DNA from: a virus
Length of the DNA stretch: 64,000 nt
IMG/VR virus record: IMGVR_UViG_3300045988_154277
Reading direction: 5' to 3' (one strand)
Shown here: positions 3,533 to 42,529 of the stretch, piece by piece
How positions within the stretch are numbered: position 1 is the stretch's first letter
Layout: each line of letters opens with the position of its first letter
Translations under genes and position numbers: made by a program
Notes under the pieces: model-generated
What the model was told of the DNA's origin: nothing
The model's database searches: none
What the model saw: the letters and a program-made list of their open reading frames with translations, nothing else

Positions 3533-5195
3533 ACGGATTGTAACCCAGTCGTTGAGCTAATGCTCGTTCGTCAGGAGGAAGACCTTCGTAAGACTCACCA
3601 CAATCTCCGTTGATTTCAGGAGGCTTGCCGTAATCGTCTTGCGCACGTCCACCATCATCGGGGATACAGTACCGATCACAATCTTCCAGACCATCCGTCC
3701 AAGGAGGTCCCGGATGATGTGGTGGAACAGGCATCGGAGGTCCTGGTTTGTGACAAGGACAACATCCCGATCCACCCGGAGGTGGTCCAGGAGGAGGCAT
3801 CGGAGGTTTCCGATCACAATCACAGCAGTACACACAAGTACTGCAGTCCATATCACAAGCATCGTTGGTGGGTTCTTCCACGATGATACCGCCCGATCCT
3901 GTTTCCAAGATCCCTTGGAGTTTCTTCAGAAGGAACACCAAGATCGGTATGAAGTAGAACCTCGCCAGTCGTTTACAGGTGAGGATCTTATCCACTAACT
4001 CCAGAAGTACTTTCGGTCTCACTTTCCCTTCCGACAGATACAGAAGGATCTGCATCTGGATCGTTCTCGTCTCAGCATCGTATTCTGTTGGGATGTTGAA
4101 CGGAGGATAGTTGTGTCTTCCATTCGGATGCAAACGAATATAACAGCGATTCGTCAGAGCGTTGATCCCAGCTGTTCTGTAATGAACACCCTTCAGGATG
4201 CGATAACATTTGTCGACAACGACTTCTTCAGGTACGGTATCTGGATCCAAAAGTCTTGCCCAGAAGGATCTGGACCACCACTCTGGTGATGGAACCAACT
4301 GGGTTGGGTATGCTCTGAAGTATTTATAATCGAACACTCTTGTGATGAACTCCACGATGTAAGGATCGTAGAGACAAGGGTTCTCAATGAATGTACGGTA
4401 GATATATTTCTCGTAGAACTCACTCACGTAATACTTGGAGAGTTTGGTGATGGCGTCTTTGACTTGACCCAAGGTCTCCGTCTCATCAGAGGTGAGAAGA
4501 GCTCCTTCTCCAGAGATATAACGTTGAAGATTGAAGTAACGTTCTTCAGTTACACGATCGTTCAACGTATCCAGTTGTTCTTTGGAGAGATAATCTACCA
4601 AGATAAACTTGATCTCATGGCCGGTGAGATCCTTGATCGACAGACGAGTTGGTGGGTCTGTTATCTTGTACAGACCATACACGCCTTTCTGTACTTCATA
4701 GATGAACAGGTCACCCGTCCAAGGTACGAAGAAAGGATAGAGTACCGCTTCTCCCGTGACTTGGGATTTCACCTTGCTTCCGTCATAGGAGAATGCAAGG
4801 CTGTCTTTCAACTTCATCTGGAAGTTGTTGATCTTCAGATACGCAACGTGTACATTATCCTGTTGAAAAGAAAGATCGTTGAAGAATGATCTCGCTGTTG
4901 CATCATTGTTCAGATTGTGATAGAACGTCACAGTGATGGACATTCCGGCACTGTATGCGAGGAGTGCTGTATCCAACGTCGTCTTCGCTGTAGTAGCTAC
5001 GGTGTTGTCAGCAGCATCCGTTGCTTGCACATATGGTTCAGATGCCAACGCCTGGGATGGTGTTGGGTTGACCACTGCGGACGAATCCACTTCTGGTTTC
5101 TCGGAAGGAGGAACCACGAAGCAACTGGTCTCACAGTTGGGTCTATTAGGGTTCTTTGGCTTACGAAGCGTGCCATTCGCTTTTGACATAGGCAT
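3510..5195 (-). CDS. hypothetical protein with a C-terminal Cys/Pro-rich tail
   Basis: 561 aa. The C-terminus contains CDMDCSTCVYCCDCD followed by a PPMPPPGPPPGG..CCPCHKPGPP low-complexity tail. Shares segments (NPCLYDPY, VVVDKCYR) with the adjacent ORF 5199..6671. Confidence 0.5.
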   Translation of the reverse strand: MPMSKANGTLRKPKNPNRPNCETSCFVVPPSEKPEVDSSAVVNPTPSQALASEPYVQATDAADNTVATTAKTTLDTALLAYSAGMSITVTFYHNLNNDATARSFFNDLSFQQDNVHVAYLKINNFQMKLKDSLAFSYDGSKVKSQVTGEAVLYPFFVPWTGDLFIYEVQKGVYGLYKITDPPTRLSIKDLTGHEIKFILVDYLSKEQLDTLNDRVTEERYFNLQRYISGEGALLTSDETETLGQVKDAITKLSKYYVSEFYEKYIYRTFIENPCLYDPYIVEFITRVFDYKYFRAYPTQLVPSPEWWSRSFWARLLDPDTVPEEVVVDKCYRILKGVHYRTAGINALTNRCYIRLHPNGRHNYPPFNIPTEYDAETRTIQMQILLYLSEGKVRPKVLLELVDKILTCKRLARFYFIPILVFLLKKLQGILETGSGGIIVEEPTNDACDMDCSTCVYCCDCDRKPPMPPPGPPPGGSGCCPCHKPGPPMPVPPHHPGPPWTDGLEDCDRYCIPDDGGRAQDDYGKPPEINGDCGESYEGLPPDERALAQRLGYNPFETADAW

Positions 5196-7900: not shown

Positions 7901-8662
7901 TCACCTCCTTGTTCGATGTTGACTGATATGTGTGTTGATGATCGTCTGGTGAAGGAGTAACATGCTACCCAGCATCTTGTTAGCTTGCGACTTCACCTTC
8001 GGATCTTGTTCGATCTTCTTGGTGACGACAGCCAGATAGATACTGGCTACATACCGCACACTGTCCAAGGCGTACTCCAGATACTTCTTACCTACATATC
8101 GTTCATCTTTCGCCGTTGTTGAGATGATCAACTGTAGTTTACGAAGTAGATCCAACGGATCATACAACATGATAGACATACGAGCGTAACGATCGCTGCT
8201 TAATGCAAATGATTGGATCACACTGATCAACGTTGAACTCCGGTTGGGATGAAGTGGATACCACTTCGTCTCCATCAACGCGAACAGTGGCATCATCAAC
8301 ATCAAGTTGATCCCACACTCGTGCTTCTCAATACGTAATATATACGTGAGAATCTGATAGACTAACGGGGGAGCTGGCATCTCCCCCAAGATCAGAGCGT
8401 CCACCAGTTGCCTGGTGGAACGTTCTTCCAAGAACCGCATACGAACACATCCGATCCGGAACAACTGTCCTGCCATGAACAGCTCCTCAGGAGAGGCACC
8501 ACCTCCCTTGTTGTAAGGATCTCGAACGATACAAGATACTTTCGCAAGGTACTTGAAGAATGGTTCTAACTCTACGAGAGGAGGATCATCCTTATTTGTA
8601 GTATCGATCAACCAGGCTTGGAACCTGGCGATCTCAGATGTGTCGAGATCACATCGTTTCAC
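7901..8662 (-). CDS. hypothetical protein, translationally coupled to the topoisomerase gene
   Basis: 253-aa ORF. Its start overlaps the stop of the topoisomerase ORF (ATGA overlap at 8659..8662). Confidence 0.45.
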   Translation of the reverse strand: MKRCDLDTSEIARFQAWLIDTTNKDDPPLVELEPFFKYLAKVSCIVRDPYNKGGGASPEELFMAGQLFRIGCVRMRFLEERSTRQLVDALILGEMPAPPLVYQILTYILRIEKHECGINLMLMMPLFALMETKWYPLHPNRSSTLISVIQSFALSSDRYARMSIMLYDPLDLLRKLQLIISTTAKDERYVGKKYLEYALDSVRYVASIYLAVVTKKIEQDPKVKSQANKMLGSMLLLHQTIINTHISQHRTRR

Positions 8663-11109
8663 AGGACCTCCTGTTCTGGTATTTGGTTCAAGATACTCTT
8701 CACATCACCAAGAACCAACGCTTTACGAGGTGCGGTATCCACGCCCATCATGTCGTAGATACGATTCACATCCCCGATACTCGTGATCGTGGTGAATGTG
8801 CGTGTTGCAGGATCCAAACAGGTGTACTTCAACTGAGGACCACTGCATTCACCGAGACCTTTCAGACGGTGAACAGGATAGTGTTCGTCGAGTTTCTGGA
8901 GGATCCGATAGAGCTGCATGAACGTCATGGGTGCTCGTTCCATCTCCGTTGTTGTTTTGGTTGTCACCAGGAGATCGAACAACTCCCAATGAACCATCTC
9001 CAACTCAGGAAGGATGTAAGAACGGATCTCTTGAACCAAGTTCTGCATCGGAACACTGATCTCGATCCCTGCTACCGACAACAAGAGTGTCTTCGCTCCA
9101 GGATGATACGAACAATCATCCAGTTTCAGGATGTTCTTCACCATCTTGGTATCCAACTTGTACAAACTCAGATAGTCCACACAGTGAACCAACTGTTCCA
9201 GTACCATCGGATCGATCACCAACTTGTTCGCAGAACGGGTGATGATCCCACCGATCCTCTTGGTCAGGTAGATGAAATCCCGATACTGTTCTCCTTTCAG
9301 TTGACACAGATTCTTGGTCATCTGAGAGTAGAGTTCCAGATTGAAGAACTTCTCATAGATCTTGACACGGGCATCGTTCAGGGCTTTCTGGTCTCTCAAG
9401 AAGAGAGCTTTATCCCGACTTTCCATCACGTAGAGCGGAGGATTCGCCATGAACACACGTCCGCTTGCCAGGATCAAAGGATTGATCTTCAACAATGCAG
9501 TGATCACAAGGTCGTTGATGTGATAACCGTCAGGGTCAGCATCTGCCAGGATCCCGATCCTTGCGAACCGCAATCTGCTCAGATCTTGATCTCTCGGTCC
9601 AACCCCCAGGATCTTCACAAGATCTTGGTAGACTTTGTTCGCTCTAAGATCCTCCACATTAGCAGTGTGTGCATTGATCGGTTTGCCTTTCAACTTGAGT
9701 ACTGCTTGGAAGTGTTTGAACCTCTCCTGAACCACGAAGTCTCCTGCGCTGTTACCCTCAGTGATGAACAGTTCCGTGATGGTCGGATCCGTCACACGTG
9801 CAGGCACATAACAACCTTCATTGTTCATGTCGTAAGCAAGGTTCTTCGAGTTGGAACTCAAGTTCATACTCTTATTGCTGAACTGAGCGAACTTCTTCAC
9901 AAGATCATCGTGGATGATGTTGAACATCTGTTCCCACACCCCATCCTGGATCGTATCGAAGTATGCATTCAGCATCTGACCGTAGATCTTCTCGAAATCG
10001 AGATCCTTGAATCCATGCTTCGTCTGACCTTCGTATGTTGCTCCTTTGTAAAACGCTCTGATATATCCGTAGAACGGAATATTGTAGAAGCGTTCGAAGA
10101 ATGTCATGATCTCATCATCGTCCTGATCGAGATATGGAGTCAATCGTTCTCTGATCTTCTCAAAGAAGACACTGAGATGTGAAGACTCTTTATCTTTGAT
10201 CTGTGTATCATTCACAGTGGCGATATAACCATTCTGACGATCACAGTTCTTGACCAGATGAACACTGATGTCACAGGCAAGCAACTTTGGGGATGTCACC
10301 TCTTGTTTCACCTCGAGATTCCAGAGAGGTTGCTCTGTGATATTGAATTTACCACGAACGTAATCTTCAGCTGAGATCATCATAGGTGTTTCGTAGATCA
10401 ATGTACCATGCTGTTTCTGGAAGTAATTCCACATGTCTTCATATGGTTTCTTGAACCAACTGTCAGGAAGAAGTTTATCTACCTGATAGATGTGGAACTT
10501 GGTATTGGTCTTGAATGCTCCGATGTAATCCACCAACTCGAATAGACGTTGTACTCCTTCCGTTGGGAAGAATGTATGAGTGTATCTCAAGATCGTGTCA
10601 TCTGGTTGATGTACTACGATAGTACCAACGGTCTCGCGAATACTATCAATTGGCTTCATCACTTCAGACTTCACCACGTTTCCTCGGTTGAGAGTCAACC
10701 CAGCGAAACCATCCAGTCTCTTTGTGATGGCCACAAACCGTTCTGAGATGGCGTTACTTGAAACAGCACCGACACCGAACTGTCCGATACTGTATTTATA
10801 AGCAGCACTATCTGCTTTGCCAGTTGAAAACGGTATCGTGAAAACATTCCGTAACTTCTCACAAGGGATACCTCTGCCGTGATCCAGTACAGCAATCTGG
10901 TAGGTAGTATCTCCCTTGAACAATATCACGTTGATGTGATAGATCCGATTTGGGTCGATGCTCTCGTCAACCGAGTTATCGATATACTCTTTTACGCACT
11001 GTATGTTAGCGTTTAGATTCGTCTTACCCATGAGCATACCCGCATTTCTACGGGTATGCTCCATGAAGGTGAATTCTCTAATGTCACTCGATGTGTAACT
11101 GTCCGTCAT
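8659..11109 (-). CDS. type II DNA topoisomerase ATPase/TOPRIM subunit (GyrB-like), translated from an internal start
   Basis: GHKL ATPase signature (EYIDNSVDE ... VLDHGRGIP), TOPRIM motif (TEGNSAGD) and the GyrB C-terminal motif (HRLKGLGE). Internal ATG at 11109 (MTDSYTSSDIREF) is preceded by GGAGGA with a 7-nt spacer. Confidence 0.8.
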   Translation of the reverse strand: MTDSYTSSDIREFTFMEHTRRNAGMLMGKTNLNANIQCVKEYIDNSVDESIDPNRIYHINVILFKGDTTYQIAVLDHGRGIPCEKLRNVFTIPFSTGKADSAAYKYSIGQFGVGAVSSNAISERFVAITKRLDGFAGLTLNRGNVVKSEVMKPIDSIRETVGTIVVHQPDDTILRYTHTFFPTEGVQRLFELVDYIGAFKTNTKFHIYQVDKLLPDSWFKKPYEDMWNYFQKQHGTLIYETPMMISAEDYVRGKFNITEQPLWNLEVKQEVTSPKLLACDISVHLVKNCDRQNGYIATVNDTQIKDKESSHLSVFFEKIRERLTPYLDQDDDEIMTFFERFYNIPFYGYIRAFYKGATYEGQTKHGFKDLDFEKIYGQMLNAYFDTIQDGVWEQMFNIIHDDLVKKFAQFSNKSMNLSSNSKNLAYDMNNEGCYVPARVTDPTITELFITEGNSAGDFVVQERFKHFQAVLKLKGKPINAHTANVEDLRANKVYQDLVKILGVGPRDQDLSRLRFARIGILADADPDGYHINDLVITALLKINPLILASGRVFMANPPLYVMESRDKALFLRDQKALNDARVKIYEKFFNLELYSQMTKNLCQLKGEQYRDFIYLTKRIGGIITRSANKLVIDPMVLEQLVHCVDYLSLYKLDTKMVKNILKLDDCSYHPGAKTLLLSVAGIEISVPMQNLVQEIRSYILPELEMVHWELFDLLVTTKTTTEMERAPMTFMQLYRILQKLDEHYPVHRLKGLGECSGPQLKYTCLDPATRTFTTITSIGDVNRIYDMMGVDTAPRKALVLGDVKSILNQIPEQEVL

Positions 11110-12264
11110 TTGTGATTCCTCCATAGTCGTACATGATAGCGATTGTACGTCGTTTTTAACTCGGTCAATATCTGGTAAATTCTCTATACCAAACATAACC
11201 ATAAGCTCATCTGTGGTGTACTTGTGTGTTGCGATTTTTGCACGTAGATCTTGTAGTTCTTCCTTGGTAAGAGGAGTTCTATTGTTTCTATCTGCAGCAT
11301 CATGTGCAGCTTTTAATGTCTTTGCACTCTCTCCCTTTCGGTACGGTACTTCATCTGTAGTGATGCATCGATAAATCATAGCTTCCGATTTATGCATCTT
11401 AGCGCTTAGTGTATTATACGTCCATCCGAGTTTATACATATCTCTTATGTAATAAACCTCGTCTTTGGAAAGAACATCACGTATTTTAACAGTCTTCCTA
11501 GTGCCCCGGACGTTCCTTACAGGATCACCCGGATCTAACGGATAAGTGATCCCATCCAATGCATTCGAAATGGTGTGTCGATCTACATTAAAGTACTCTG
11601 CTAGTTTCCAAATCTTCCACTTCTCCTTCCCATACAGTCGACGGATCTCTTTTACTTGATCACGATTTAACTTGCTATGATTTGAATTATAGTGTTTATC
11701 ACGATAACGATCAATATCAATAGCTTTATCAGATGTTGTCCGATAGTACGTCTCATTTACAGCAGTTGATATCAACGAACCCTGTACATTGAATTCTTCT
11801 GCAAGATCTTTAATGTGTTCTCCGGACAACACACGAATTTTAAGTTCAGTAACTTGATCGTTTGTTAACTTCGCCTGTGGGTGGGCTTCACCAGACAGCA
11901 TCAGACCCATACGGACAGCGTGATGTTTGTTCTCACTAGATGATACCCATTCCAGATTGGACACATCGTTGTTTTGAGGATTTCCATCAATGTGATTTAC
12001 TTCTCTAAGATTGGCAGGATTTGGAAGAAAAGTCCATGCAACCAAGCGATGTGGGCTTGTTAGGTGACGTGACCCATCTCGTTTCACAAACACACATTTC
12101 AAACGATTATGTTTGTCTGTAAAGTATTTGAGATCCGGTATAACAAACCCTCGTTTTTTAACATACTCAGGAGAATTAGCACCTGGTTTAATACGAACAT
12201 GACCGGTTGTACTAGCTTCATAAATTCCTTCATACCCTTTTACATCTTTCCAGTATTCATTCAT
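8659..12264 (-). CDS. continuous ORF in which an HNH homing endonuclease is fused in frame to the topoisomerase subunit
   Basis: No stop codon between the HNH module and the topoisomerase. Likely start is the ATG at 12264 (MNEYWKDVKGYEGIYEAS), with GGAG 9 nt upstream. The ORF-track GTG start at 12321 overlaps the promoter-like motif. Confidence 0.6.
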   Translation of the reverse strand: MNEYWKDVKGYEGIYEASTTGHVRIKPGANSPEYVKKRGFVIPDLKYFTDKHNRLKCVFVKRDGSRHLTSPHRLVAWTFLPNPANLREVNHIDGNPQNNDVSNLEWVSSSENKHHAVRMGLMLSGEAHPQAKLTNDQVTELKIRVLSGEHIKDLAEEFNVQGSLISTAVNETYYRTTSDKAIDIDRYRDKHYNSNHSKLNRDQVKEIRRLYGKEKWKIWKLAEYFNVDRHTISNALDGITYPLDPGDPVRNVRGTRKTVKIRDVLSKDEVYYIRDMYKLGWTYNTLSAKMHKSEAMIYRCITTDEVPYRKGESAKTLKAAHDAADRNNRTPLTKEELQDLRAKIATHKYTTDELMVMFGIENLPDIDRVKNDVQSLSCTTMEESQMTDSYTSSDIREFTFMEHTRRNAGMLMGKTNLNANIQCVKEYIDNSVDESIDPNRIYHINVILFKGDTTYQIAVLDHGRGIPCEKLRNVFTIPFSTGKADSAAYKYSIGQFGVGAVSSNAISERFVAITKRLDGFAGLTLNRGNVVKSEVMKPIDSIRETVGTIVVHQPDDTILRYTHTFFPTEGVQRLFELVDYIGAFKTNTKFHIYQVDKLLPDSWFKKPYEDMWNYFQKQHGTLIYETPMMISAEDYVRGKFNITEQPLWNLEVKQEVTSPKLLACDISVHLVKNCDRQNGYIATVNDTQIKDKESSHLSVFFEKIRERLTPYLDQDDDEIMTFFERFYNIPFYGYIRAFYKGATYEGQTKHGFKDLDFEKIYGQMLNAYFDTIQDGVWEQMFNIIHDDLVKKFAQFSNKSMNLSSNSKNLAYDMNNEGCYVPARVTDPTITELFITEGNSAGDFVVQERFKHFQAVLKLKGKPINAHTANVEDLRANKVYQDLVKILGVGPRDQDLSRLRFARIGILADADPDGYHINDLVITALLKINPLILASGRVFMANPPLYVMESRDKALFLRDQKALNDARVKIYEKFFNLELYSQMTKNLCQLKGEQYRDFIYLTKRIGGIITRSANKLVIDPMVLEQLVHCVDYLSLYKLDTKMVKNILKLDDCSYHPGAKTLLLSVAGIEISVPMQNLVQEIRSYILPELEMVHWELFDLLVTTKTTTEMERAPMTFMQLYRILQKLDEHYPVHRLKGLGECSGPQLKYTCLDPATRTFTTITSIGDVNRIYDMMGVDTAPRKALVLGDVKSILNQIPEQEVL
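11110..12264 (-). mobile_element. HNH homing endonuclease module (NUMOD4 + HNH_3 + repeated HTH motifs)
   Basis: GYEGIYEASTTGHV (NUMOD4-like), NHIDGNPQNNDVSNLEWVSSSENKHHA (HNH), then repeated NUMOD1/IENR1-like helix-turn-helix segments. Confidence 0.7.
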
Positions 12265-12294
12265 AATAACAACTCCAGTTAATAGTGTTTTCTT

Positions 12295-12314
12295 AGAGTT
12301 ATATATACGTGAAG
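12295..12314 (-). promoter_or_regulatory. early-promoter-like motif (minus strand reads cacgTATATATAActct), 30-50 nt upstream of the HNH-topoisomerase start
   Basis: Member of the conserved motif family agtWatatataYNtSaaa, found only in this orientation. Confidence 0.5.
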
Positions 12315-12334
12315 TTACCACGAAACAAAAAGAG

Positions 12335-12367
12335 AAGGTATGGTGGATTTTGTATCCACCATACCTT
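12335..12367 (-). terminator. terminator-like hairpin between the two HNH genes
   Basis: 14-bp stem aaggtatggtggat / atccaccatacctt. The minus strand is followed by CTCTTTTTGTTTCG. Confidence 0.55.
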
Positions 12368-12372
12368 GTGTG

Positions 12373-13398
12373 TTAGAACGTTCTACTTCCGTATTCGATC
12401 ACATTCCATTTCTTCATAAGTTCTCTCAACGAGTACTTATTCGATGCGATATCCTCCCTTAACAGCATCAGTTCTTCTTTCGTGAATGGGACTCTATTAC
12501 GAGTCAATTGACTATTATGTTCTTCGATCAATTTGCGAACAGAATCACCATTCGAAAATGGAACCTCATCCGTAAATAACGCACGTTGCAACACACTGTA
12601 GTTACCAATATCAACCCAATGTATGATGCTTGATATACGTGCACCTCTACGATACGCATCCCGTATCTTAATAACTGTATCTTCAGACACAAGCTTAGTT
12701 AACGGGATGTGTGCGTTAGGAGATTTCAAGAATCGAATCGGTGTATCCGGTGTGATATCGTACGTTATACCACCAAGAAGATGTGACACTGTAGGAGCAT
12801 TCACATTCATTAGAGTAGATATAGCCGTTACACTATACCCGTGATCGAAGTAAAGAGATCTGATTCTACGTACATCTTCGTTTGTGAAAATGGAGCTTTG
12901 GTGATCTACTCCTGATTGTTTCACATGCAGTTTGGTACCCTCTTTACCCTCAAAACATGCACGCTGTTTCAATATGATCCCATTCACACCACTCAGACCG
13001 ATATTGAACTCTTCAGCAAGAGACTTCATCGATTCTCCTTTATGATAGCGTAAATAGATCTCGATGTCTTTAGAGCGACTGACCATTGTCATACCAGAAT
13101 CAGAAGGATCGTTAGACCAACTGAGATTGGATAACTGACAATTACTGTGATCGTAATCCTTATATCGGACATACAAACCATCACTACCAACAAAGTGACG
13201 TAGCACCAATCTCGATACGGGAGCGGTCTTCCATTCACCTTTGTCATTAACCATGTTCACAAACATGGACAAGCAGTTGTGATTCTTATGCTGCGGTAAA
13301 ATGCGATCTCCCTTTTTACGATGTCTCCTAACACGTCCGAGATTAGACACCTCGTACTTCGAGAATCCTTCTATAGACACCCAACGTTCTTCTTCCAT
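12373..13398 (-). mobile_element. free-standing HNH homing endonuclease, paralogous to the module fused to the topoisomerase
   Basis: GFSKYEVSNLGRVRR (NUMOD4), YKDYDHSNCQLSNLSW (HNH_3-like), and C-terminal HTH repeats matching the fused copy (FTKEELMLLREDIASNKYSLRELM vs TKEELQDLRAKIATHKYTTDELM). RBS is AGGAGG. Confidence 0.75.
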
Positions 13399-13440
13399 GA
13401 TACTATCCTCCTAAGTTAAGTTCTATTCACGTATCATTAC

Positions 13441-13475
13441 AGAGTAATATATACTTCAAATAGGCTTCATTTACA
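13441..13475 (-). promoter_or_regulatory. early-promoter-like motif (minus strand reads TATATATTAC), 45 nt upstream of the HNH endonuclease start
   Basis: agagtaatatatacttcaaataggcttcatttaca. The extended flank is shared with the copies at 48066 and 31298. Confidence 0.5.
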
Positions 13476-13677
13476 GTAAGACGGACCTATCTGGTTGGTT
13501 ATCCCAACCAGATAGGTCACATACAGGAGAGAGTGTGAACGACTAGGAACATCAACCCAAGAACCATTCCTAAAGCTCCCTAAACCAAAAGAAAGGATGG
13601 TGTATCGCTACACCTGTTTCTAGGTCGTTTCACATAGGATGTGCACCGTAGAGCAGAACCCCCTGAAACACAGGGAT

Positions 13678-13685
13678 ATGCTATG
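13678..13685 (+). promoter_or_regulatory. ATGCTATG motif (late-promoter-like), 56 nt upstream of the ATG at 13742
   Basis: The same octamer lies upstream of three other gene starts in the appropriate orientation. Confidence 0.35.
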
Positions 13686-13741
13686 ACAGATCCCTGCTGT
13701 AGCAAGGACAAATTACGGTGAAATCAACTAGGAGATTTAAT

Positions 13742-14953: not shown

Positions 14954-16606
14954 TTAGTTCAAAACGAACTTGTTGAGATCATCGATCTGATAAGTTGAGA
15001 TCTTCGTACCATGCATGCTCTTCAGAGCATCCGTGGTGAAGGTCGATGTGATATCCACTGCATCCAATGCAAGATGCTTCGCATTCTTCTTCGCATAGAT
15101 GTCGCCCATGCACATGTAACAGAGTCCATGTTGGGCTTGACAATACATCGGAGAACGCACCAAACATGTCTTACCGACGAACTTCTCCATGTTCTGTTCT
15201 GTAAGAAGAACCCAGTTCGAACCATCTTGGATATAGGAACCAAGATAACGTCCGATCTTGTACTTCGAGAAATCCACAGTAAGTCCACGTGTGGTGTGAC
15301 AGTCCTGTTCTGATACGGTAAGGTCCTGAAGAACACGGGTGATGCCTTTGGTTAGTGCACCGCCGAGTTTCGTCTGGTCACCACGGTTGAACGAACCTTT
15401 ACGGGTCTCGTTCGCCATAGCAGGCATCGTCTCTGCGGTCATCCCTTCGGACAGAGAGTTCGGAATAAACACGAAGTTCCCAGTTGTCTTGGAGAACTCT
15501 TCCACACCACCGACCGTCAGATACATCTTCTTACGGGAGATGTTGAAGGGTTTGTCACCGAGCGGCCCATAGAATCGCATCACTTCATCATCTTTGAGAT
15601 AGTTCTTATCCATCGCGATCAAGGTATTCTCGATCTCCATGATGACGTTCGGATCGTTCAACTTATCCTTGTACTTCTCCATCAACTCTTGTTTCACTTT
15701 CCTCACATTCGGATCTGTGGTAAGTGATTTACGAGTATAAGTCGGTACACAGAGTTCAGTGAAGTGTCCGATGAAGTAGAGATCGTTCACATATTGCTTA
15801 TATGCGGATACCGGGATAGAACCGTCCAACATACCTTTGGCAACGATCGTATCGATATAACCGAGATCAAATACGGAGTTCTGATAAGAGATCTTGTCTT
15901 GGAATGGATGAACCAGAAGAAGGTAGTTCAATAAGAACCGACCTACGGTGGTAATCATCTCTTCCTTGCAGTTGATGATCTCACCGGGATTCAGTTGGAA
16001 CGTATCGATCTCACCGAATGCTCTCTGGATCCCGTTGTCCAGGTAGTTCAATGTGAACGAATATGTCTCCTGATCGATATCCGAGACATACACCAGACAG
16101 GACTGACTGCTACCCACAACGGATGCCAAGAACACATCTCCTTCTTGCAAAACACATTTCTGGAAGTGTGTTGCGTTGTAATTCGCAGAGGTGTAGTAAT
16201 CGAAGAGCTCTTGGTTCGTCTTGTTGTAGAGGTCTTTGCTGAACTGATCTGCTTCTTCTTTCTTCTCTGGAGAGAGAGCAAGGTAGTTCCTATACTGGAA
16301 CAGAAGATGGAAAAGACTATCGTTGAACGGATACACCAGTGCGATTTGTCGCATCGCGATCTGTTTCAAAACTTCATCGTCTGTGATATCTTGCTCTTGC
16401 AGAGGAATATACACCGCATCTTCCGGAGGTGTCTTCAATGTAACACGAACAGAATGACGTTCCGGTGTGATCGCTTCGCTCTCATACAGAGGGAAAACAG
16501 GACGTCCACCAACCTGTGTCATGATGTCGATCAAAAATGCACGTTCTAACAGACGTCTCTGGTACTTGATCAAAAACTCTTTCTTATGGATCGGAAGTTC
16601 CATCAC
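14954..16606 (-). CDS. multisubunit RNA polymerase beta-prime subunit fragment (catalytic loop region to the second zinc-binding motif)
   Basis: [42 protein letters not shown] aligns with the E. coli beta-prime bridge helix ([38 protein letters not shown]). [20 protein letters not shown] aligns with [50 protein letters not shown] aligns with [26 protein letters not shown]. Confidence 0.75.
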   Translation of the reverse strand: [550 protein letters not shown]

Positions 16607-18233: not shown

Positions 18234-20090
18234 TTACATCTGTCGGAACTGTGATTCCGTCACGATCTGGATCCCGTAGCGTCTGGCTTTCACCAGTTTC
18301 GTACTTTCATCCTCTTGTTCTTCATCCGGAACAACGAGTAATGAGAGATCTTTTGTGACAGCAGGTACTGGTTGATAACCTTTGGATCTGGCATAAGCTT
18401 CCAACTCAGATCTTGGGGCACTCATTTTACCTGTGAAACAGATCGTCATGTCGAAGTTCTGACCAACACTGTTGAGATTGGTGCAGAGCATCAGACAGAG
18501 AGCCAGATTCTGAACATTCTCAGAATAGGACAACCATCTCACAAGGGACAATCCTGTTTCACCAAACGATTGAAACTTCTCTAAAGCGTGTTCCGTTGAA
18601 AGCGTTGTAAGATCTTCGATCGAACAAACGGTCAACAGCATCGCTGCGTTAGCTTTGCTGATCCTCGGGATCCCTAACGCTGACAGCAGCATCGCAGGTG
18701 TTGCTGTCCGAAGAGCGTTCTGGATCGAAGCATACAACTTTGTCGCTACCTTAGGTGATACGTCCGCGTAAGAACATAGTCCTTCCAAGGAGATAGACAG
18801 AAGTTGATGCAACTGCAACACCTTGTTGGATACCAGGTTCATAAGTACTACCTTCCCGAAACCATCCAGCTTCAGCTCCTTCGCTGCTTTGCGAAGGATC
18901 GCCAATGCAACACCAGGACAATCAGGGTTGGTGCAAACCAACTCTACATCTTCCTGATGAGTCGGATGTCCACACGATGGGCAGGTATGTGGTATCATCA
19001 GTTCACCTTGGTTACGGACATGATCTTCCACACAGATGTGAGGAACAACATCACCCGCTCGTTCCACCTTGACGATATCTCCGAGTCTGAAATCATTCTT
19101 GATCACATACGCCAGGTTGAACAACGATGCTTGCTGTATCGTGACATTCCCGATCTTCACAGGATCGATGATGCCTTTCGGAGTGATACTCCGCATCCCA
19201 ACATTCCACTCGATCCCACGTAAGGTAGAAGTCTGAGACTCATTGGCGAACTTGAACGCCATCATCCCTCTTGGATGGTGTTGTGTTGCACCAAGTTCTT
19301 GAATCTTGGATATATCACCAAGTTTGATCACCATCCCATCCGTCGGATAGTTTAGTTCTTCCACATCCAAGACAAGTTTATCCCACTCTTCTGGATCCTC
19401 CAACATATTCAACGTCATGATCGTTGAATAGAAGGTGTAATCCACGAATGTCAGGATCTTCTTGCCTTTCAGATCAGGAAGTGGTTCTTTGGATGCCAGG
19501 ATGCCCGCAACCGTATTCCTCTGTGTATTATATTTTTCACCATTCTGTTTCAGGATCTTACCAGAGAGGAAGTACTCTTCGAAGTCCTCATCTGTGATGA
19601 TGATCTCACCATAGAACGGTGTGTTCAGAAGAAGCAACTGTATTGCTTTGTTAGGATGTCTCATCGCCTGTAACAAAACAGTTGAAGTTGTCTTTACTTC
19701 GATCAGAGGCAACTTGCTAGTGATATCCTCTCCGACATGTCCATCTCCTCTGGTGCTCAGTTGCCAACCACGAGTTGTGTAGACCAGTTTACCTGCGATC
19801 CCATCATACTTCGGTTGCACTACGAACGTGCTGTCTTCTCGTCCAACACTCTTGCACCACTTGACGATCTCTTCGTGCGTGTAGCGTTTGTCCAGAGAGA
19901 GCATCGGTGGATTGTGGATCACAGAGCCTTTCTCTCCTCCGATATAGGTGAGTCTTGGATCATCAGGATCCAAGACACGAAGTTGTTCGATCAACTTATC
20001 ATACTCCTGATCGGAGATGATGGGTTGGTGATCGGTCCAATATTTCACATTGGCTTCATCGATCTTCTTCCGTAAAGTGTCAATGTCCAT
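18234..20090 (-). CDS. ligA: NAD-dependent DNA ligase
   Basis: KYDGIAG (KxDG adenylation motif), ERAGDVVP, the zinc finger CPSCGHPTHQEDVELVCTNPDCPG, and a C-terminal BRCT-like region. RBS is AAGGAG. Confidence 0.9.
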   Translation of the reverse strand: MDIDTLRKKIDEANVKYWTDHQPIISDQEYDKLIEQLRVLDPDDPRLTYIGGEKGSVIHNPPMLSLDKRYTHEEIVKWCKSVGREDSTFVVQPKYDGIAGKLVYTTRGWQLSTRGDGHVGEDITSKLPLIEVKTTSTVLLQAMRHPNKAIQLLLLNTPFYGEIIITDEDFEEYFLSGKILKQNGEKYNTQRNTVAGILASKEPLPDLKGKKILTFVDYTFYSTIMTLNMLEDPEEWDKLVLDVEELNYPTDGMVIKLGDISKIQELGATQHHPRGMMAFKFANESQTSTLRGIEWNVGMRSITPKGIIDPVKIGNVTIQQASLFNLAYVIKNDFRLGDIVKVERAGDVVPHICVEDHVRNQGELMIPHTCPSCGHPTHQEDVELVCTNPDCPGVALAILRKAAKELKLDGFGKVVLMNLVSNKVLQLHQLLSISLEGLCSYADVSPKVATKLYASIQNALRTATPAMLLSALGIPRISKANAAMLLTVCSIEDLTTLSTEHALEKFQSFGETGLSLVRWLSYSENVQNLALCLMLCTNLNSVGQNFDMTICFTGKMSAPRSELEAYARSKGYQPVPAVTKDLSLLVVPDEEQEDESTKLVKARRYGIQIVTESQFRQM

Positions 20091-33442: not shown

Positions 33443-35539
33443 TCATCCGTAAAGGTCCATCAGAAGTGTCTTAGTCTCTTTATTGAGATGAGCCACTCCG
33501 ATGTTGAGTTTGTTCAGGACTCGATACAGAGCAGAACAGTTGTGATAGATGATCTTCTTGTAATCCACCAAAGGGATGATCTCTTTGGGGATCGCATTCG
33601 CAGCTGGGTTGATCAGGACGTTGTTCGGGAACTTCTTATGCTGTTCTACGAACTTCATCGTCTCTTGATAGATGGATTTATTCATCTTCTCAAGCTCCTG
33701 ATAATAACCGGCTGTAGGGGTGTACAGGGATACGTAAATCACCTTAGCTGGCGGTTGAACATCCCCGTATTTCTTGGCATAAACAGCTTGCCAGAACATC
33801 CAAGCGAAGAACACAGAGGTTGACTCAGGATCACTGTAATCTCTCTCATACTTCAAGGATGTGATCTGGAGGAACTCTGTTTCTCCACGTTTGATACTAT
33901 CCATGATGTTGTGTTCCCACCCAAGTACTTTATCGATCAACTTATTGGCTGATAGCTTCCCTTGGATGGAAGGATACAACACATCGTTCTCGATGAAGTT
34001 CTGGATGAAATCAAGAGAGGTTGAACAGATCGAAGATCCTCTGAGTGTTTGACCTTTGATATCCGCTTTGGGTTTGGGTAGGATTACTCCTTCCTGCACC
34101 GCTTGGATCCCACAATACGTCTTCTTGATACCGAAGAGCAACATGATGGGATAGAGGAACTCATTCTTCATCGCCAGCACACGACGATGCTCAGGAGATA
34201 CCCCATGAAGGATACTGTATCGATAGCAAGCGTGACGAACACTATGATGGAGCCAGTAGATCACCAAGGAAGTGATCTGATAACTCTCATCTGTGATGTC
34301 ATAGTGGATCCCACCACGATACCAATCATCCCACTCAGCAGCTGTGAAGATTTCACTATCCGTATCACTGATGATAACGGTGTTCCGCCAGGTCATTTGT
34401 TTCTTACGAACCTCTGGAACATCCGCATCTGTGTTGACGAACGTATCGAACAGGAGATCCAGCATGTGGACTTTCTTCTCGATGCTCTTACAGTAAGCTA
34501 CCACCTTCGGGATCAACTCTGGATGTTCTTCCACGATGATCTTGATCGAGTAGTTGTTGAACTCCTTCGCAAGACCCACTGTTGTGATCGCCAGCACCGT
34601 CTCATCTTGTTTGAAGATATCATCCGCTGTTACATTCGGATCGATCTGTACTTTACTGGTATCGAACACATAGTGGATGAACCCTTTGAAGATCTCAGAG
34701 TTGTACCACATGATGTGTCTCAGATTACAGTAGTAGAAGAGGAAAGTCACTTCCAATGGGGTGAGTCGACTTACCAGTCGGTCTACAGAAGCCATCTGAC
34801 AACCAGGACAGTACCGATGTAATGTCTCAGTGTAGAAATCGATCAGCTGCATGTGATCGATCATCTTCAGTTTATACTTCTGGATCGCTTGGTTGATCTG
34901 ATCATCCGAAGGACGCAACCTTAAGTTAAGTAGGATGTGGTTCACCAGTTCATCTTCACTGAACCAGGAGAAGTTCCCACCCAACAACTGTTCTGCTACC
35001 GTGTATGCTCTTACGATCATACAGCGAGCAGCAGATGTGATCGTGTTGTATCCCGGTTTATCATAGAAGATATTGAACGGAGATCCGAATCCTCCAGGTA
35101 GACTGTTACAGTTGATCTTGATCGTAGCTTGCTGATACCAGCAACGCTTCGCTTCCAAGTCATCACCCACCGCTTCTGCAGCAAGTTGTTTCTTCTTAAC
35201 CTTCTTACGTTCTTTCAGCTTATCGACGACCATCTCTGCGATGAACGAAGATTGTTCGATCGTTGGTTTGTACATCGATCCAGCTGGTGTGATTACTTTG
35301 GATTTTTGTTGATTCAAGAACTGGTAGAAATCTTCCTCCACGATCTTCTCATTCCCAGGAGAGACCGTCTTATTGTAAATAACTCGTTTACTCTGATATC
35401 GTTCTCGGAAGGTATCCTTCAGGAACCGTTTGATCTCATTATCATCTTCAAATCCAGTCATCCTCTTTAGATAGTCATAATGCATCCGCATCGCTTCCTG
35501 GAAGATATCGGGTCTTACTATCTGATCGGTTGTTAGCAT
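33443..35539 (-). CDS. large hypothetical protein with weak polymerase-like motifs
   Basis: Start refined to MLTTDQIV at 35539 (AGGTG RBS). Contains KINCNSLPGGFG and ISDTDSEIF, which resemble family-B polymerase motifs B and C. No motif A is present and the spacing is atypical, so the assignment is not confident. Confidence 0.5.
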   Translation of the reverse strand: MLTTDQIVRPDIFQEAMRMHYDYLKRMTGFEDDNEIKRFLKDTFRERYQSKRVIYNKTVSPGNEKIVEEDFYQFLNQQKSKVITPAGSMYKPTIEQSSFIAEMVVDKLKERKKVKKKQLAAEAVGDDLEAKRCWYQQATIKINCNSLPGGFGSPFNIFYDKPGYNTITSAARCMIVRAYTVAEQLLGGNFSWFSEDELVNHILLNLRLRPSDDQINQAIQKYKLKMIDHMQLIDFYTETLHRYCPGCQMASVDRLVSRLTPLEVTFLFYYCNLRHIMWYNSEIFKGFIHYVFDTSKVQIDPNVTADDIFKQDETVLAITTVGLAKEFNNYSIKIIVEEHPELIPKVVAYCKSIEKKVHMLDLLFDTFVNTDADVPEVRKKQMTWRNTVIISDTDSEIFTAAEWDDWYRGGIHYDITDESYQITSLVIYWLHHSVRHACYRYSILHGVSPEHRRVLAMKNEFLYPIMLLFGIKKTYCGIQAVQEGVILPKPKADIKGQTLRGSSICSTSLDFIQNFIENDVLYPSIQGKLSANKLIDKVLGWEHNIMDSIKRGETEFLQITSLKYERDYSDPESTSVFFAWMFWQAVYAKKYGDVQPPAKVIYVSLYTPTAGYYQELEKMNKSIYQETMKFVEQHKKFPNNVLINPAANAIPKEIIPLVDYKKIIYHNCSALYRVLNKLNIGVAHLNKETKTLLMDLYG

Positions 35540-35589
35540 ATTCACCTCTAGTTGTAATATTCAGTCGTATAGGTTGAAACTCTTTCATT

Positions 35590-40642: not shown

Positions 40643-42529
40643 ATGCCAACTGTACAGCAAGAACCGAATATCGGCTTCGTTCCGATGGATAACAACATCG
40701 GTATGAGCAATCGGTTAGAGAAAGATGAGATGCAGAAGATCATGGTTGAAACACTCGGCGACCTTGCCGATGTGCTGAAAGATCACTGCGGTCCGTATGG
40801 TAAGTATGCAGCGATCACATCTCCTGTGAACCCCTCTGCAGAACCGATCTTCACGAAAGACGGGATCAACATCGTCCGTTCGATCGACTACGTGTCTCAG
40901 GTGCAACAGTTCATCAGGCACACACTGATGTACATGGGATCTCGTATCGAATCTACAGCAGGTGATGGTACGACTTCTGCCATGATCATCATGGCTGTTG
41001 CGATGAAGAACCTGATCCGATCGATCAACGATATTCCCTGCACCTATCAAGATCTGATCTATGTATATCAGAAATACATCCTGGACAAGATGGATGGTGG
41101 ATATAAGGAACATTATGGGTATCATGTCGATAACCAGCAGTTCAAGAACTACGCCAGTCTCCATACAGAGTACGAGGGTGGTGAAGCTTCTACGATGAAG
41201 AAGGGGATCCGTTATATCGCTTACAGTCAAGCGTATACCTCGTCGCATGGTGATATTGAACTTTCCAACATCATCGCTGATCTGTTCGCGAATACTCCGA
41301 AAGAAGTGTGGCACCTCTTCTCTCTGGACAAAGCAGCATATGAAACCAAAGAGCGGTATGTGGTGGATACGGAGTGCTGTCAGTGGAAGGTGGAGGGATG
41401 TCAGCTCTTTCCTCTTACGCAGATGTCAGAGGAGTTCGGCACCGCAGCGATCCGAGAGAACGCTACAACGTTGTTGACGGATCACGGGATATCGGTTGGA
41501 GATGACTATACCAAACCAGTCAGAAATCGAATCGAACAAGCGATCTTGAATGATGAACAGTTGACGGTTCTGGTAACTGGCAACTTAGATACCGCAACCA
41601 ACATGTGGTTGACTGGGTTGTTCCAGCAACATCCGAACCACATGATCAGTATCTACATGATCACTCCTGGAGATTATGGTCTGTGGAACGACATTCCCTA
41701 CATGAAGGTTGCATCAGGACAGCAGCCCACAGAAGTGATGGAGTTCCAACTGGACTACAAGTTCAACGGACGTGATCTCACGATCACCAAAGGTCTGTAC
41801 GAAGACGATGACAAAACTACTTGTCATATGCATCCGTTCTACAAGAACGAAGCATATCCTCTTTACAACGACTTCGTTGCCAGATTGGAACATCAGATCA
41901 AGATCCAGTCTTCTGTTGTGGCTACCAGAGAGTCCAACAACACGGTCGCCCACATGAAGAAGATGCTCAGCAAACTCATCGTGGTGAATCGCAACTACTT
42001 CCGAGTTGGCGGTGCTGCATATGACAATGCTGCCGCGGTTGATGTAGCGGTAGATGTCCTCACAGCAGTGAAGAACACTCTGATCAATGGATGCGCTCTC
42101 GGATCCAACAAGACGTTGTATCAATTCTTCCATAATCGGAAGAAGAATGCGGTTGATCTTGGTATGGATCAGAAGACTTCGAAGATCCTGGTTGCTTTTG
42201 CAGATGCGTTCATGTCTGCGATCGAAGAGACCTTCACTGCGATGTTTCGTTTCGCACCGACGATGCGTCCTGCAGATGATCGTATTAAAGAGATCCTACT
42301 GGAACCTGTTCCGTACAACATCCTGGAACAAGATCAATCCAGTGCAGAGTATCATAACCTTTATGATATGTGCTTCTCTGAACACACGAACCAACCAGCT
42401 GTGCTTCAACCGATCGATACCGATATGGCCATCGTAAGACGGTTCGGTGAAGTGGCTCTTCGGTTCGTGAAAACAGCGCGACTGGTCTCAGAGGGCGGTA
42501 TCTACGTCAACCAAAAGAAGGACTCTTGA
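40643..42529 (+). CDS. divergent chaperonin (GroEL/Cpn60-like)
   Basis: LADVLKDHCGPYGKYAAI, FTKDGINIVRSIDY and TAGDGTTSAMIIMA align with the GroEL N-terminal equatorial domain (LADAVKVTLGPKGRNVVL, ITKDGVSVAREIEL, AAGDGTTTATVLA). Length is 628 aa. Confidence 0.75.
   Translation: MPTVQQEPNIGFVPMDNNIGMSNRLEKDEMQKIMVETLGDLADVLKDHCGPYGKYAAITSPVNPSAEPIFTKDGINIVRSIDYVSQVQQFIRHTLMYMGSRIESTAGDGTTSAMIIMAVAMKNLIRSINDIPCTYQDLIYVYQKYILDKMDGGYKEHYGYHVDNQQFKNYASLHTEYEGGEASTMKKGIRYIAYSQAYTSSHGDIELSNIIADLFANTPKEVWHLFSLDKAAYETKERYVVDTECCQWKVEGCQLFPLTQMSEEFGTAAIRENATTLLTDHGISVGDDYTKPVRNRIEQAILNDEQLTVLVTGNLDTATNMWLTGLFQQHPNHMISIYMITPGDYGLWNDIPYMKVASGQQPTEVMEFQLDYKFNGRDLTITKGLYEDDDKTTCHMHPFYKNEAYPLYNDFVARLEHQIKIQSSVVATRESNNTVAHMKKMLSKLIVVNRNYFRVGGAAYDNAAAVDVAVDVLTAVKNTLINGCALGSNKTLYQFFHNRKKNAVDLGMDQKTSKILVAFADAFMSAIEETFTAMFRFAPTMRPADDRIKEILLEPVPYNILEQDQSSAEYHNLYDMCFSEHTNQPAVLQPIDTDMAIVRRFGEVALRFVKTARLVSEGGIYVNQKKDS

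Follow-up and report, generated by a model that had tools for sequence, protein, structure and literature searches.

The DNA analysed here, IMG/VR virus record IMGVR_UViG_3300045988_154277, is a stretch of 64,000 nucleotides (the window) from a gut jumbo phage of about 280 kb; related contigs of 260-281 kb come from human gut metagenomes. On the minus strand of this stretch, an HNH homing endonuclease module (HNH#1) runs in frame into the N-terminus of a GyrB-like topoisomerase II subunit. It is probable that HNH#1 is a mobile homing endonuclease gene (HEG) cassette lodged in the 5' untranslated region (UTR) of the topoisomerase gene, expressed as a fusion while the topoisomerase is made from its native start, and spreading by homing before it decays. 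The evidence comprises the anatomy of the locus, the presence or absence of the cassette at the same site in three lineages, mosaic flanks, purifying selection on the nuclease, a conserved internal start, decaying alleles, and recurrence of the arrangement with a second endonuclease family. From its sequence, the locus is predicted to differ from known HEGs in that the cassette is embedded in a 5'UTR and read in frame into an essential topoisomerase gene, which retains its native start.

The fused reading frame and the internal topoisomerase start

Positions 12264 to 8659 (minus strand) form a single open reading frame (ORF) of 1201 codons in the ORF listing of the window, with the stop at 8661-8659. 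The mechanically called ORF (8659 to 12321, minus strand) stretches further up, to a GTG at 12321, and has no interior stop. An earlier note made from the letters of this DNA had described a frame without a stop between the endonuclease and the topoisomerase, and that description holds. The 1201-aa product consists of an I-HmuI-like NUMOD4/HNH/helix-turn-helix (HTH) module (aa 1 to about 365), a linker of about 20 aa, and a complete GyrB-like subunit. Before the topoisomerase start, the frame of HNH#1 takes up 11110 to 12264 (minus strand, 385 codons); its catalytic motif V89-H115 is encoded at 12000 to 11920 and is followed by three to four HTH units. Pfam placed NUMOD4 at aa 3-28 (29.3 bits, cut-off 23.4), HNH_3 at aa 88-113 (30.3 bits, cut-off 24.8) and HTH-type matches at about aa 191-233 of HNH#1. 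In the topoisomerase part of the fusion it found HATPase_c (aa 422-509), Toprim (831-939) and DNA_gyraseB_C (1128-1182). All of these named domains scored above the curated cut-offs, the sub-threshold HTH matches excepted. PHROGs assigned aa 1-302 to the HNH endonuclease family phrog_59 and aa 377-996 to the topoisomerase II large subunit family phrog_543.

I-HmuI (PDB 1u3e) is the sole PDB match of HNH#1 (E = 1.7e-9). In the alignment, His91 and Asn112 of HNH#1 fall on their conserved counterparts in the HNH motif of I-HmuI; both residues are invariant across three fused lineages. From the Pfam matches, this alignment and a rate of nonsynonymous differences (pN) far below that of synonymous differences (pS), HNH#1 looks functional as a nuclease. 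An AlphaFold2 (AF2) model of HNH#1 shows, at low confidence, repeated three-helix units, and the linker also has low AF2 confidence and is predicted to be disordered.

The topoisomerase, a GyrB/ParE-like type IIA subunit B, occupies 8659 to 11109 (minus strand) and is 816 aa long from the internal ATG. It aligns end to end with TIGR01059 gyrB (positions 1-628 of 639) at a score far below the equivalog cut-off, which marks it as a divergent member. PDB GyrB/ParE chains matched at E = 2e-37, and GyrB N-terminal fragments aligned from residue 1-4. The GHKL ATPase, Toprim and GyrB C-terminal domains stand in type IIA subunit B order with an N-terminal arm; the N-terminus, MTDSYTSSDI, resembles the arm of E. 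coli GyrB (MSNSYDSSSI). The family is about 800-850 aa long in nearly all full-length members among the roughly 150 best clusters, and in a representative search nearly every full-length relative begins, with its own residues 1-10, at query aa 386-390; the search yielded 357 clusters of the family at E <= 1e-30. The protein is about 25-28% identical to GyrB of AR9, PBS1 and S6. A near-DNA search of 50,697 phage records gave no match to this phage, and no cultured close relative was found.

The internal initiation site is as the earlier note had described it: GGAGGA at 11122 to 11117, a 7-nt spacing, and an ATG at 11109 to 11107 (M386), encoding MTDSYTSSDIREF. The fusion junction around this start reads ...SCTTMEESQMTDSY... 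Its Shine-Dalgarno (SD) sequence is kept in all fused and empty alleles. The initiation region at ATG 11109 is less structured than 190 of 200 shuffled sequences, and no RNA structure that sequesters either ribosome-binding site was found (z 0.21 and +1.52). Alleles in which HNH#1 is frameshifted sit in apparently complete genomes of about 234-281 kb. In these otherwise intact genomes, the topoisomerase therefore cannot depend on the upstream start. Internal initiation at ATG 11109 is thus the probable source of the working topoisomerase. By the logic of the ORF, the HNH#1 nuclease would be obtainable only as a chimera of about 138 kDa, barring unrecognised recoding or processing.

The usual settings of an endonuclease gene were considered for HNH#1. 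An intein was rejected: Pfam gave no Hint/intein domain in the fused ORF, and the HNH module precedes the complete native N-terminus of the topoisomerase instead of lying inside the gene, which agrees with the earlier description of a fusion without intein features. A group I intron was rejected as well, as Rfam gave no family at gathering score in the window and no match at E <= 1 in 10800-13700. A free-standing HEG does not fit either, for HNH#1 has no in-frame stop before 8659-8661, and the same holds at loci L002, L003, L101 and L105. A stop-free linker of 28 codons has a probability of about 0.14 in random sequence of the same composition, so the window alone is not decisive and the comparative data settle the matter.

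The 1201-aa fusion was used as query against 5.8 billion proteins. At 98-100% identity the product occurs in 9 protein clusters and on at least 19 contigs, which derive from several sources and reach 279 kb in length; a truncated call of 1144 aa is matched by one GenBank Third Party Annotation bacteriophage record. Diverged fused versions were found at 77% (P0017, 1203 aa) and 71% (P0018, 1200 aa) amino acid identity, and their contigs confirm uninterrupted fused ORFs. Between the three lineages the HNH module has pN of 0.11-0.32 against pS of 0.68-0.90, with synonymous sites saturated. These values indicate that the nuclease module has long been kept as a protein under purifying selection. 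The linker (aa 359-385) evolves faster, with a ratio of nonsynonymous to synonymous rates (dN/dS) of 0.4-0.7, and contains neither indels nor stops among the three lineages.

These results bear on the two trivial explanations offered in the earlier note, that the fusion is an error of sequencing or assembly or a very recent stop loss in a single genome. All that speaks for them is the general expectation of a stop at the end of an endonuclease gene. They are contradicted by the identical ORF in many independent assemblies from different studies, by fusions retained at 71-77% identity with saturated synonymous sites, and by a 3' edge of the cassette that meets UTR-derived sequence with no stop remnant. 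We therefore regard both as excluded for practical purposes. Relatives carry either the fusion or no cassette; a separate HNH gene one base away from the fused form was not among them.

Empty sites, mosaic flanks and decaying alleles

Comparison with related phages that lack the insertion, which the earlier note had recommended, defined the cassette. In a near-identical phage (contig L001) the topoisomerase stands alone as an 816-aa protein (P0019, 99% identity), and the order of elements is HNH#2 (the upstream HNH paralog, see below), a hairpin, a promoter motif, and the topoisomerase 135 nt after HNH#2. BLAST of L001 against the window gave homology at 13693-12288 and again at 11085-7000; window positions 12287 to 11086 stand in place of 74 nt of L001. 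Other relatives show further combinations. L004 (a 263-kb contig) and L104 contain no HNH gene at all, L005-7 and L019 only a gene of HNH#2 type, and L020 neither endonuclease gene upstream of the topoisomerase. L103 lacks the HNH#1 cassette, its contig being too short to judge HNH#2. HEG-plus and empty alleles could thus be paired on three backbones: window/L001, L002/L020 and L003/L103.

The HNH#1 cassette extends from 11159 to 12287 (minus strand), with an exact left edge and a right edge known to about 15 nt on either side. It measures about 1.15-1.2 kb, has neither promoter nor stop, and brings its own SD (GGAG, 12276 to 12273) and ATG (12264). In all three pairs the left edge lies 10-13 nt after TATATA(A/T)AC, and the lineage-specific upstream flank is kept. 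The insertion point lies in the 5'UTR, about 50 nt upstream of the topoisomerase ATG. In HEG-plus alleles, the final 50 nt or so before this ATG can be aligned with the 5'UTR found in empty alleles, most clearly for L003 against L103 and for the window against L104. The C-terminal part of the linker (11110 to 11158, minus strand) is therefore a translated remnant of the native 5'UTR, including the native SD at 11122 to 11117. The cassette displaced only about 9 nt in lineage C. The element AACAACCATnnTCTACATAGGAGG is conserved in the 5'UTRs of empty sites and absent or altered in HEG-plus alleles, and is a candidate recognition site of the endonuclease.

A promoter-like motif of the topoisomerase gene, TTCACGTATATATAAC (12298 to 12313, minus strand), is found upstream of the topoisomerase in every HEG-plus and empty allele, and would now drive the HNH#1-topoisomerase transcript. 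The window has eight copies of TTCACGTATATAT(A/T)AC against 0.48 expected, all on the minus, coding strand and mostly just upstream of genes (8350-8335, 12313-12298, 13459-13444, 20161-20146, 31314-31299, 32880-32865, 35607-35592 and 48082-48067). The motif is likely a phage-specific promoter and perhaps serves the phage's own multisubunit RNA polymerase.

The flanks of the cassette are mosaic. The window is 63-85% identical to L019/L005 over the first 825 nt or so of the topoisomerase gene (10285 to 11109, minus strand) and 89-100% identical beyond this break. Similarly, L002 is 61-83% identical to its HEG-less sibling L020 over about 550 nt of the topoisomerase 5' end and 94-99% identical beyond. 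Between HEG-plus lineages A and D, the N-terminal topoisomerase segments agree at 84%, yet either one has only 72-74% identity with its HEG-less sibling. The mosaic 5' segment is likely a co-conversion tract carried along with the cassette. The orders of similarity also disagree: the endonuclease is 79% identical for A-D and 58% for A-C, while the C-terminal backbone is 76% identical for A-D and 81% for A-C. Both HNH cassettes have a GC content of 37-41%, against 46-50% in the flanks.

Decay of HNH#1 is visible in sister genomes. A run of six A at 12154 to 12159 (minus strand; A6 in the window and L010) is shortened to A5 in many of them (among them L008, L009 and L021), which causes a frameshift after 54 aa. 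The change accounts for the truncated gene calls P0010-P0015 from at least eight contigs and occurs on two single-nucleotide polymorphism backgrounds. A separate frameshift, deletion of the G at 12000, was found in L010. Hallmarks of phage HEGs are variable presence, frameshifted alleles, a position adjoining essential genes and mosaic flanks (PMC10448857, PMC2988022). HNH#1 shows each of these, with presence/absence polymorphism at one defined site and mosaicism of the kind left by flanking co-conversion.

The same observations argue against a module that has been domesticated as a permanent N-terminal domain and is no longer mobile. Purifying selection on the module and the long persistence of the fusion are what one would expect of such a domain. 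Domestication is nonetheless very improbable, given presence and absence at one site in 99%-identical genomes, independent frameshift alleles, low GC, mosaic flanks, and the discordant similarity of endonuclease and backbone. In addition, nearly all of the roughly 150 best-scoring topoisomerase clusters lack an N-terminal extension of such size.

We propose the following course of events for a mobile cassette in the 5'UTR. Transcription would start at the topoisomerase promoter. Ribosomes loading at the cassette SD and ATG 12264 would translate the nuclease, then the residual 5'UTR as linker, and then the topoisomerase frame, yielding an HNH-GyrB chimera of about 138 kDa. Ribosomes loading at the retained native SD and ATG 11109 would produce the normal 816-aa subunit. 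In co-infection, the nuclease would nick or cut the uninterrupted 5'UTR or 5' end of HEG-less alleles, and repair would copy the cassette together with a variable length of 5' topoisomerase sequence. After the cassette has spread, the endonuclease would decay by frameshift, or recombination would remove the cassette. Why read-through is retained is a matter of interpretation, which is taken up in the next section.

A second fused family and the question of selected read-through

An unrelated endonuclease is arranged in the same way. Apart from the HNH#1 fusions, the representative topoisomerase search gave a single cluster with an N-terminal extension (P0043, 1094 aa); its first 285 aa belong to the unrelated HNH family phrog_374 (E = 7e-75) and are fused in frame, with AAGGAGG and an ATG at the canonical topoisomerase start. 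P0182-P0186 retain this fusion at 66-80% identity, and P0189 does so at 41% (34% over the HNH region); the deepest lineage still has the internal GGAGG and ATG. In total, phrog_374 fusions occur in seven lineages of another jumbo-phage clade at the orthologous topoisomerase gene; in-frame HNH-topoisomerase loci are found at L101 (3001-6285), L105 (2501-5872) and L107. The last is a 238-kb IMG/VR contig with 287 open codons upstream of the start, and is probably the contig of P0184. The second clade also has HEG-less relatives (P0187, P0188), and the N-terminal segment of the topoisomerase is again hypervariable. In phrog_374 the motif is IDRIDN, in which Arg takes the place of the HNH_3 His, and Pfam HNH_3 gives no match, so the nuclease status of this family is uncertain.

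Two surveys provide a background for these cases. When 57 other phage GyrB-like loci were surveyed, the frame ahead of the topoisomerase start stayed open for about 12 codons at the median and for no more than 60; L107 is the sole exception. About 70 complete free-standing relatives of the HNH#1 core were found in metagenomes, and nearly all have their own stop, mostly after 150-250 aa. For the HNH#1 family alone, retention of an open linker is only suggestive, and the argument for selection therefore rests on the second family and the surveys. With at least two origins and ten retained lineages, pure chance is unlikely and the pattern suggests that read-through is selected; the lineages within each family share ancestry, so the ten cases are not independent.

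The strongest rival is that the chimera itself is the selected product. HNH#1 would then work only, or best, as the N-terminal domain of topoisomerase B, and read-through would not be a by-product. The endonuclease might be tethered to phage DNA, or dimerisation through the GHKL gate might bring two nickases together to make a double-strand break, or the chimera might be a weapon against co-infecting relatives. We rate this a little short of an even chance. The frame is open in 10 of the 10 sampled HEG-bearing lineages, in two unrelated families, at HNH identities down to 34-58%, and the linker of the first family is free of indels. The ends of the free-standing relatives and the 60-codon ceiling at other loci point the same way, as does strong purifying selection on a module that could be made in no other way than fused. 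The cassette is dispensable, however, since empty-site and frameshifted alleles occur in near-identical genomes. The conserved internal SD and ATG show a need for free topoisomerase, the relaxed constraint on the linker (dN/dS as above) does not favour a selected chimera, and shared ancestry reduces the ten cases to at least two origins.

Release of a free HNH protein by programmed recoding or by proteolysis of the linker, for example through a +1 shift to the TGA of the topoisomerase ATGA, is improbable. In all three lineages of the first family (window 11110-11190, L002 and L003) the +1 frame is open from the early linker to the TGA that overlaps the topoisomerase ATG, with the internal SD just upstream of the putative shift; +1 shifting of the prfB type likewise has an internal SD just upstream. 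Predicted disorder of the linker would favour proteolysis. Against recoding, a search at the linker A-run and at ATGA gave no signal of programmed frameshifting: neither a slippery sequence nor a hungry codon could be recognised, and RNA folding gave no stimulatory structure (z +1.52). An open +1 frame of about 25 codons could well arise by chance, and the junctions of the second family read ATGG in L101 and ATGA in L105, so ATGA is not universal. The open +1 frame may be a coincidence or a hint of an alternative termination route.

Several points weigh against our preferred reading of a mobile, fused cassette. We infer the production and stoichiometry of the fusion and of the free topoisomerase from sequence, and the nuclease activity and target of HNH#1 from homology only. 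The AF2 model of the HNH module, built on a 3-sequence alignment, has a mean predicted local distance difference test score of 50.7, too low to judge the fold. In a simulation at the divergence observed, a linker stayed free of stops with a probability of about 0.26-0.33 per lineage. The proximal UTR is naturally open in frame in 3 of the 8 empty alleles examined, so that read-through could have begun by chance. Ordinary recombination combined with loss, without active homing, could also account for the presence/absence pattern and the mosaic flanks. L001 carries 5' topoisomerase sequence of the HEG-plus type without the cassette, which fits either gain or loss.

A broader proposal, that jumbo phages harbour a distinct class of such cassettes, we hold with rather more doubt than belief. 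The class would comprise at least two unrelated HNH families, stop-less, situated in the 5'UTR of GyrB-like genes and existing as obligate fusions; read-through would be selected, the nuclease tethered to or dimerised by the topoisomerase, and normal topoisomerase supplied by internal initiation. A further read-through endonuclease fusion was seen in an unrelated context: at L058 (507-4451), an HNH_3 and NUMOD1 module lies in frame within a 1314-aa ORF, preceded by a methyltransferase and followed by glycosyltransferase domains.

Neighbouring genes, known systems and significance

The second endonuclease-like gene, HNH#2, occupies its own cassette at 12328 to 13544 (minus strand). L004 lacks this cassette; its homology to the window stops at about 13545 and picks up again at 12327. 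It consists of a copy of the promoter-like motif (13459 to 13444), a 341-aa gene (13398 to 12373) and the terminator hairpin pointed out in the earlier note (12367 to 12335), which has a 14-bp stem and a T-run. HNH#2 is 28% identical to HNH#1 over 361 aa (E = 2e-32), a true but distant paralog. The earlier assignment to the same family thus stands as far as descent is concerned. As an HNH endonuclease it does not hold: Pfam finds only NUMOD4 and HTH without an HNH_3 match, Tyr replaces the catalytic His, and an SSSENKHH segment is deleted. Nor are the two genes tandem copies, as had been proposed; they are ancient paralogs in two cassettes of about 1.2 kb that flank the topoisomerase promoter, and no tandem duplication is involved. 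In contrast to HNH#1, HNH#2 is free-standing, an independent ORF with its own stop. What remains of the earlier account is the in-frame fusion and the internal start, with its upstream gene and tandem status corrected.

The HNH#2 slot holds three allelic types which are 50-53% identical in amino acids, while the flanking genes are 98-100% identical (window 13398-12373, L009 1218-2228, L005 4888-5856 and L019 2866-3857 were compared). All three have Tyr at the position of the catalytic His, and pN (0.33) is far smaller than pS (0.76-0.80). In L019 the gene is broken into pieces of 112 and 230 aa. These features suggest a DNA-binding role that is maintained without nuclease function, or a hotspot at which alleles are replaced. 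The terminator between HNH#2 and the topoisomerase has an identical stem of 12-14 bp in all alleles (window 12335-12367, L001 1327-1359, L019 about 3860-3895). Its 5-nt loop is inverted, ACAAA in the window against TTTGT in L001 and L019, as if the palindrome had flipped. No further HNH paralogs were found within the 64-kb window. A third one, encoded some 15 kb away on this type of genome (L049/L050, 3635-4375), has 246-249 aa and its own stop, and its core is 57% identical to HNH#1.

Downstream of the topoisomerase lies a 253-aa gene (7901 to 8662, minus strand), its GTG start codon sharing the GTGA with the stop of the topoisomerase. Synteny is preserved in all relatives, and neither PHROGs nor NCBIfam gave a match; the product may work as a partner of the topoisomerase. 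A 514-aa ORF antisense to the topoisomerase (8638-10182, plus strand) is most likely a codon-usage by-product of the opposite strand. Genes at 14954-16606, 18234-20090, 33443-35545 and 40643-42529 encode, respectively, an RNA polymerase beta-subunit-like protein (phrog_2962, E = 4e-97), an NAD-dependent DNA ligase, a DNA polymerase and a GroEL-like protein. No tRNAs or Rfam matches were found in the window, and no gene for a GyrA-like partner was seen among the window ORFs scanned.

The closest parallel to the HNH#1 cassette is MobA, an HNH element of about 1.1 kb in the topoisomerase II large-subunit gene 39/60 of T4-like phages (bioRxiv 10.1101/2022.08.31.505936, PMC2988022), which bears out the earlier remark that HEGs target phage topoisomerase genes. 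Both are HNH cassettes that target a GyrB-like phage gene, replace a few tens of nucleotides of the target, add element-derived residues in frame to the host protein, vary among related phages, and often have an endonuclease that was later pseudogenised or lost. MobA sits in mid-gene and has its own stop; it splits the topoisomerase into two ORFs with new terminal extensions and a 50-nt translational bypass. Unlike MobA, HNH#1 lies in the 5'UTR, leaves the topoisomerase intact with its native start, and has its endonuclease ORF itself fused. A splitting element of the MobA type was accordingly rejected for HNH#1, which is inserted upstream of the start codon of an uninterrupted 816-aa ORF. Compared by family assignments, the two have no sequence relationship beyond the HNH motif.

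I-HmuI, the nicking endonuclease of Bacillus phage SPO1, shares with HNH#1 an N-terminal NUMOD4-type beta region and the HNH motif. It has 174 aa and its own stop and is located inside a group I intron, whereas HNH#1 has no intron, possesses a much longer C-terminal region (the three to four HTH units) and runs into its host gene. The Mob proteins of T4 and the HEGs of ICP1 (PMC2988022, PMC10448857) resemble HNH#1 in variable presence, frameshifts, mosaic flanks and proximity to essential replication genes. Unlike HNH#1, they are free-standing at recombination boundaries, separate genes with their own stops.

Endonucleases within a host polyprotein are familiar from inteins and from mitochondrial group I introns, whose ORFs (endonucleases or maturases) are in frame with the upstream exon. 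HNH#1 differs in having neither an intron nor a Hint/splicing domain, and in being fused to the downstream gene through a translated 5'UTR. Its host protein would be made by internal initiation, whereas those of intron ORFs and inteins arise by splicing or processing. A survey of Jug (jumbo gut) phages, a group of 360-402 kb as against about 280 kb for the present phage, counted 88 HNH domains inside other genes and hundreds of stand-alone HEGs; it gives only their number, without describing architecture, junction or mechanism (PMC12880540). A literature search of partial coverage returned no description of an N-terminal read-through fusion of a free-standing endonuclease into an essential neighbour gene.

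HEGs are usually placed in introns, in inteins or in free-standing genes. HNH#1 documents a fourth arrangement across many natural alleles. An endonuclease gene without promoter or stop borrows the promoter, 5'UTR and reading frame of an essential gene, and the host gene would persist via internal initiation. Its recurrence with an unrelated endonuclease family at the same gene suggests a general, low-cost embedding route for selfish nucleases. We are slightly inclined to doubt that the chimera itself is functional; the fusion is a natural test case for whether homing benefits when a nickase is tethered to a dimerising enzyme bound to DNA. For annotation, calls of "DNA gyrase subunit B" with about 1100-1200 aa in gut jumbo phages should be treated with caution, as composites whose true start lies inside the ORF. 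Together, the intact, frameshifted and empty alleles provide a natural series in which the life cycle of an endonuclease can be tracked in metagenomes.

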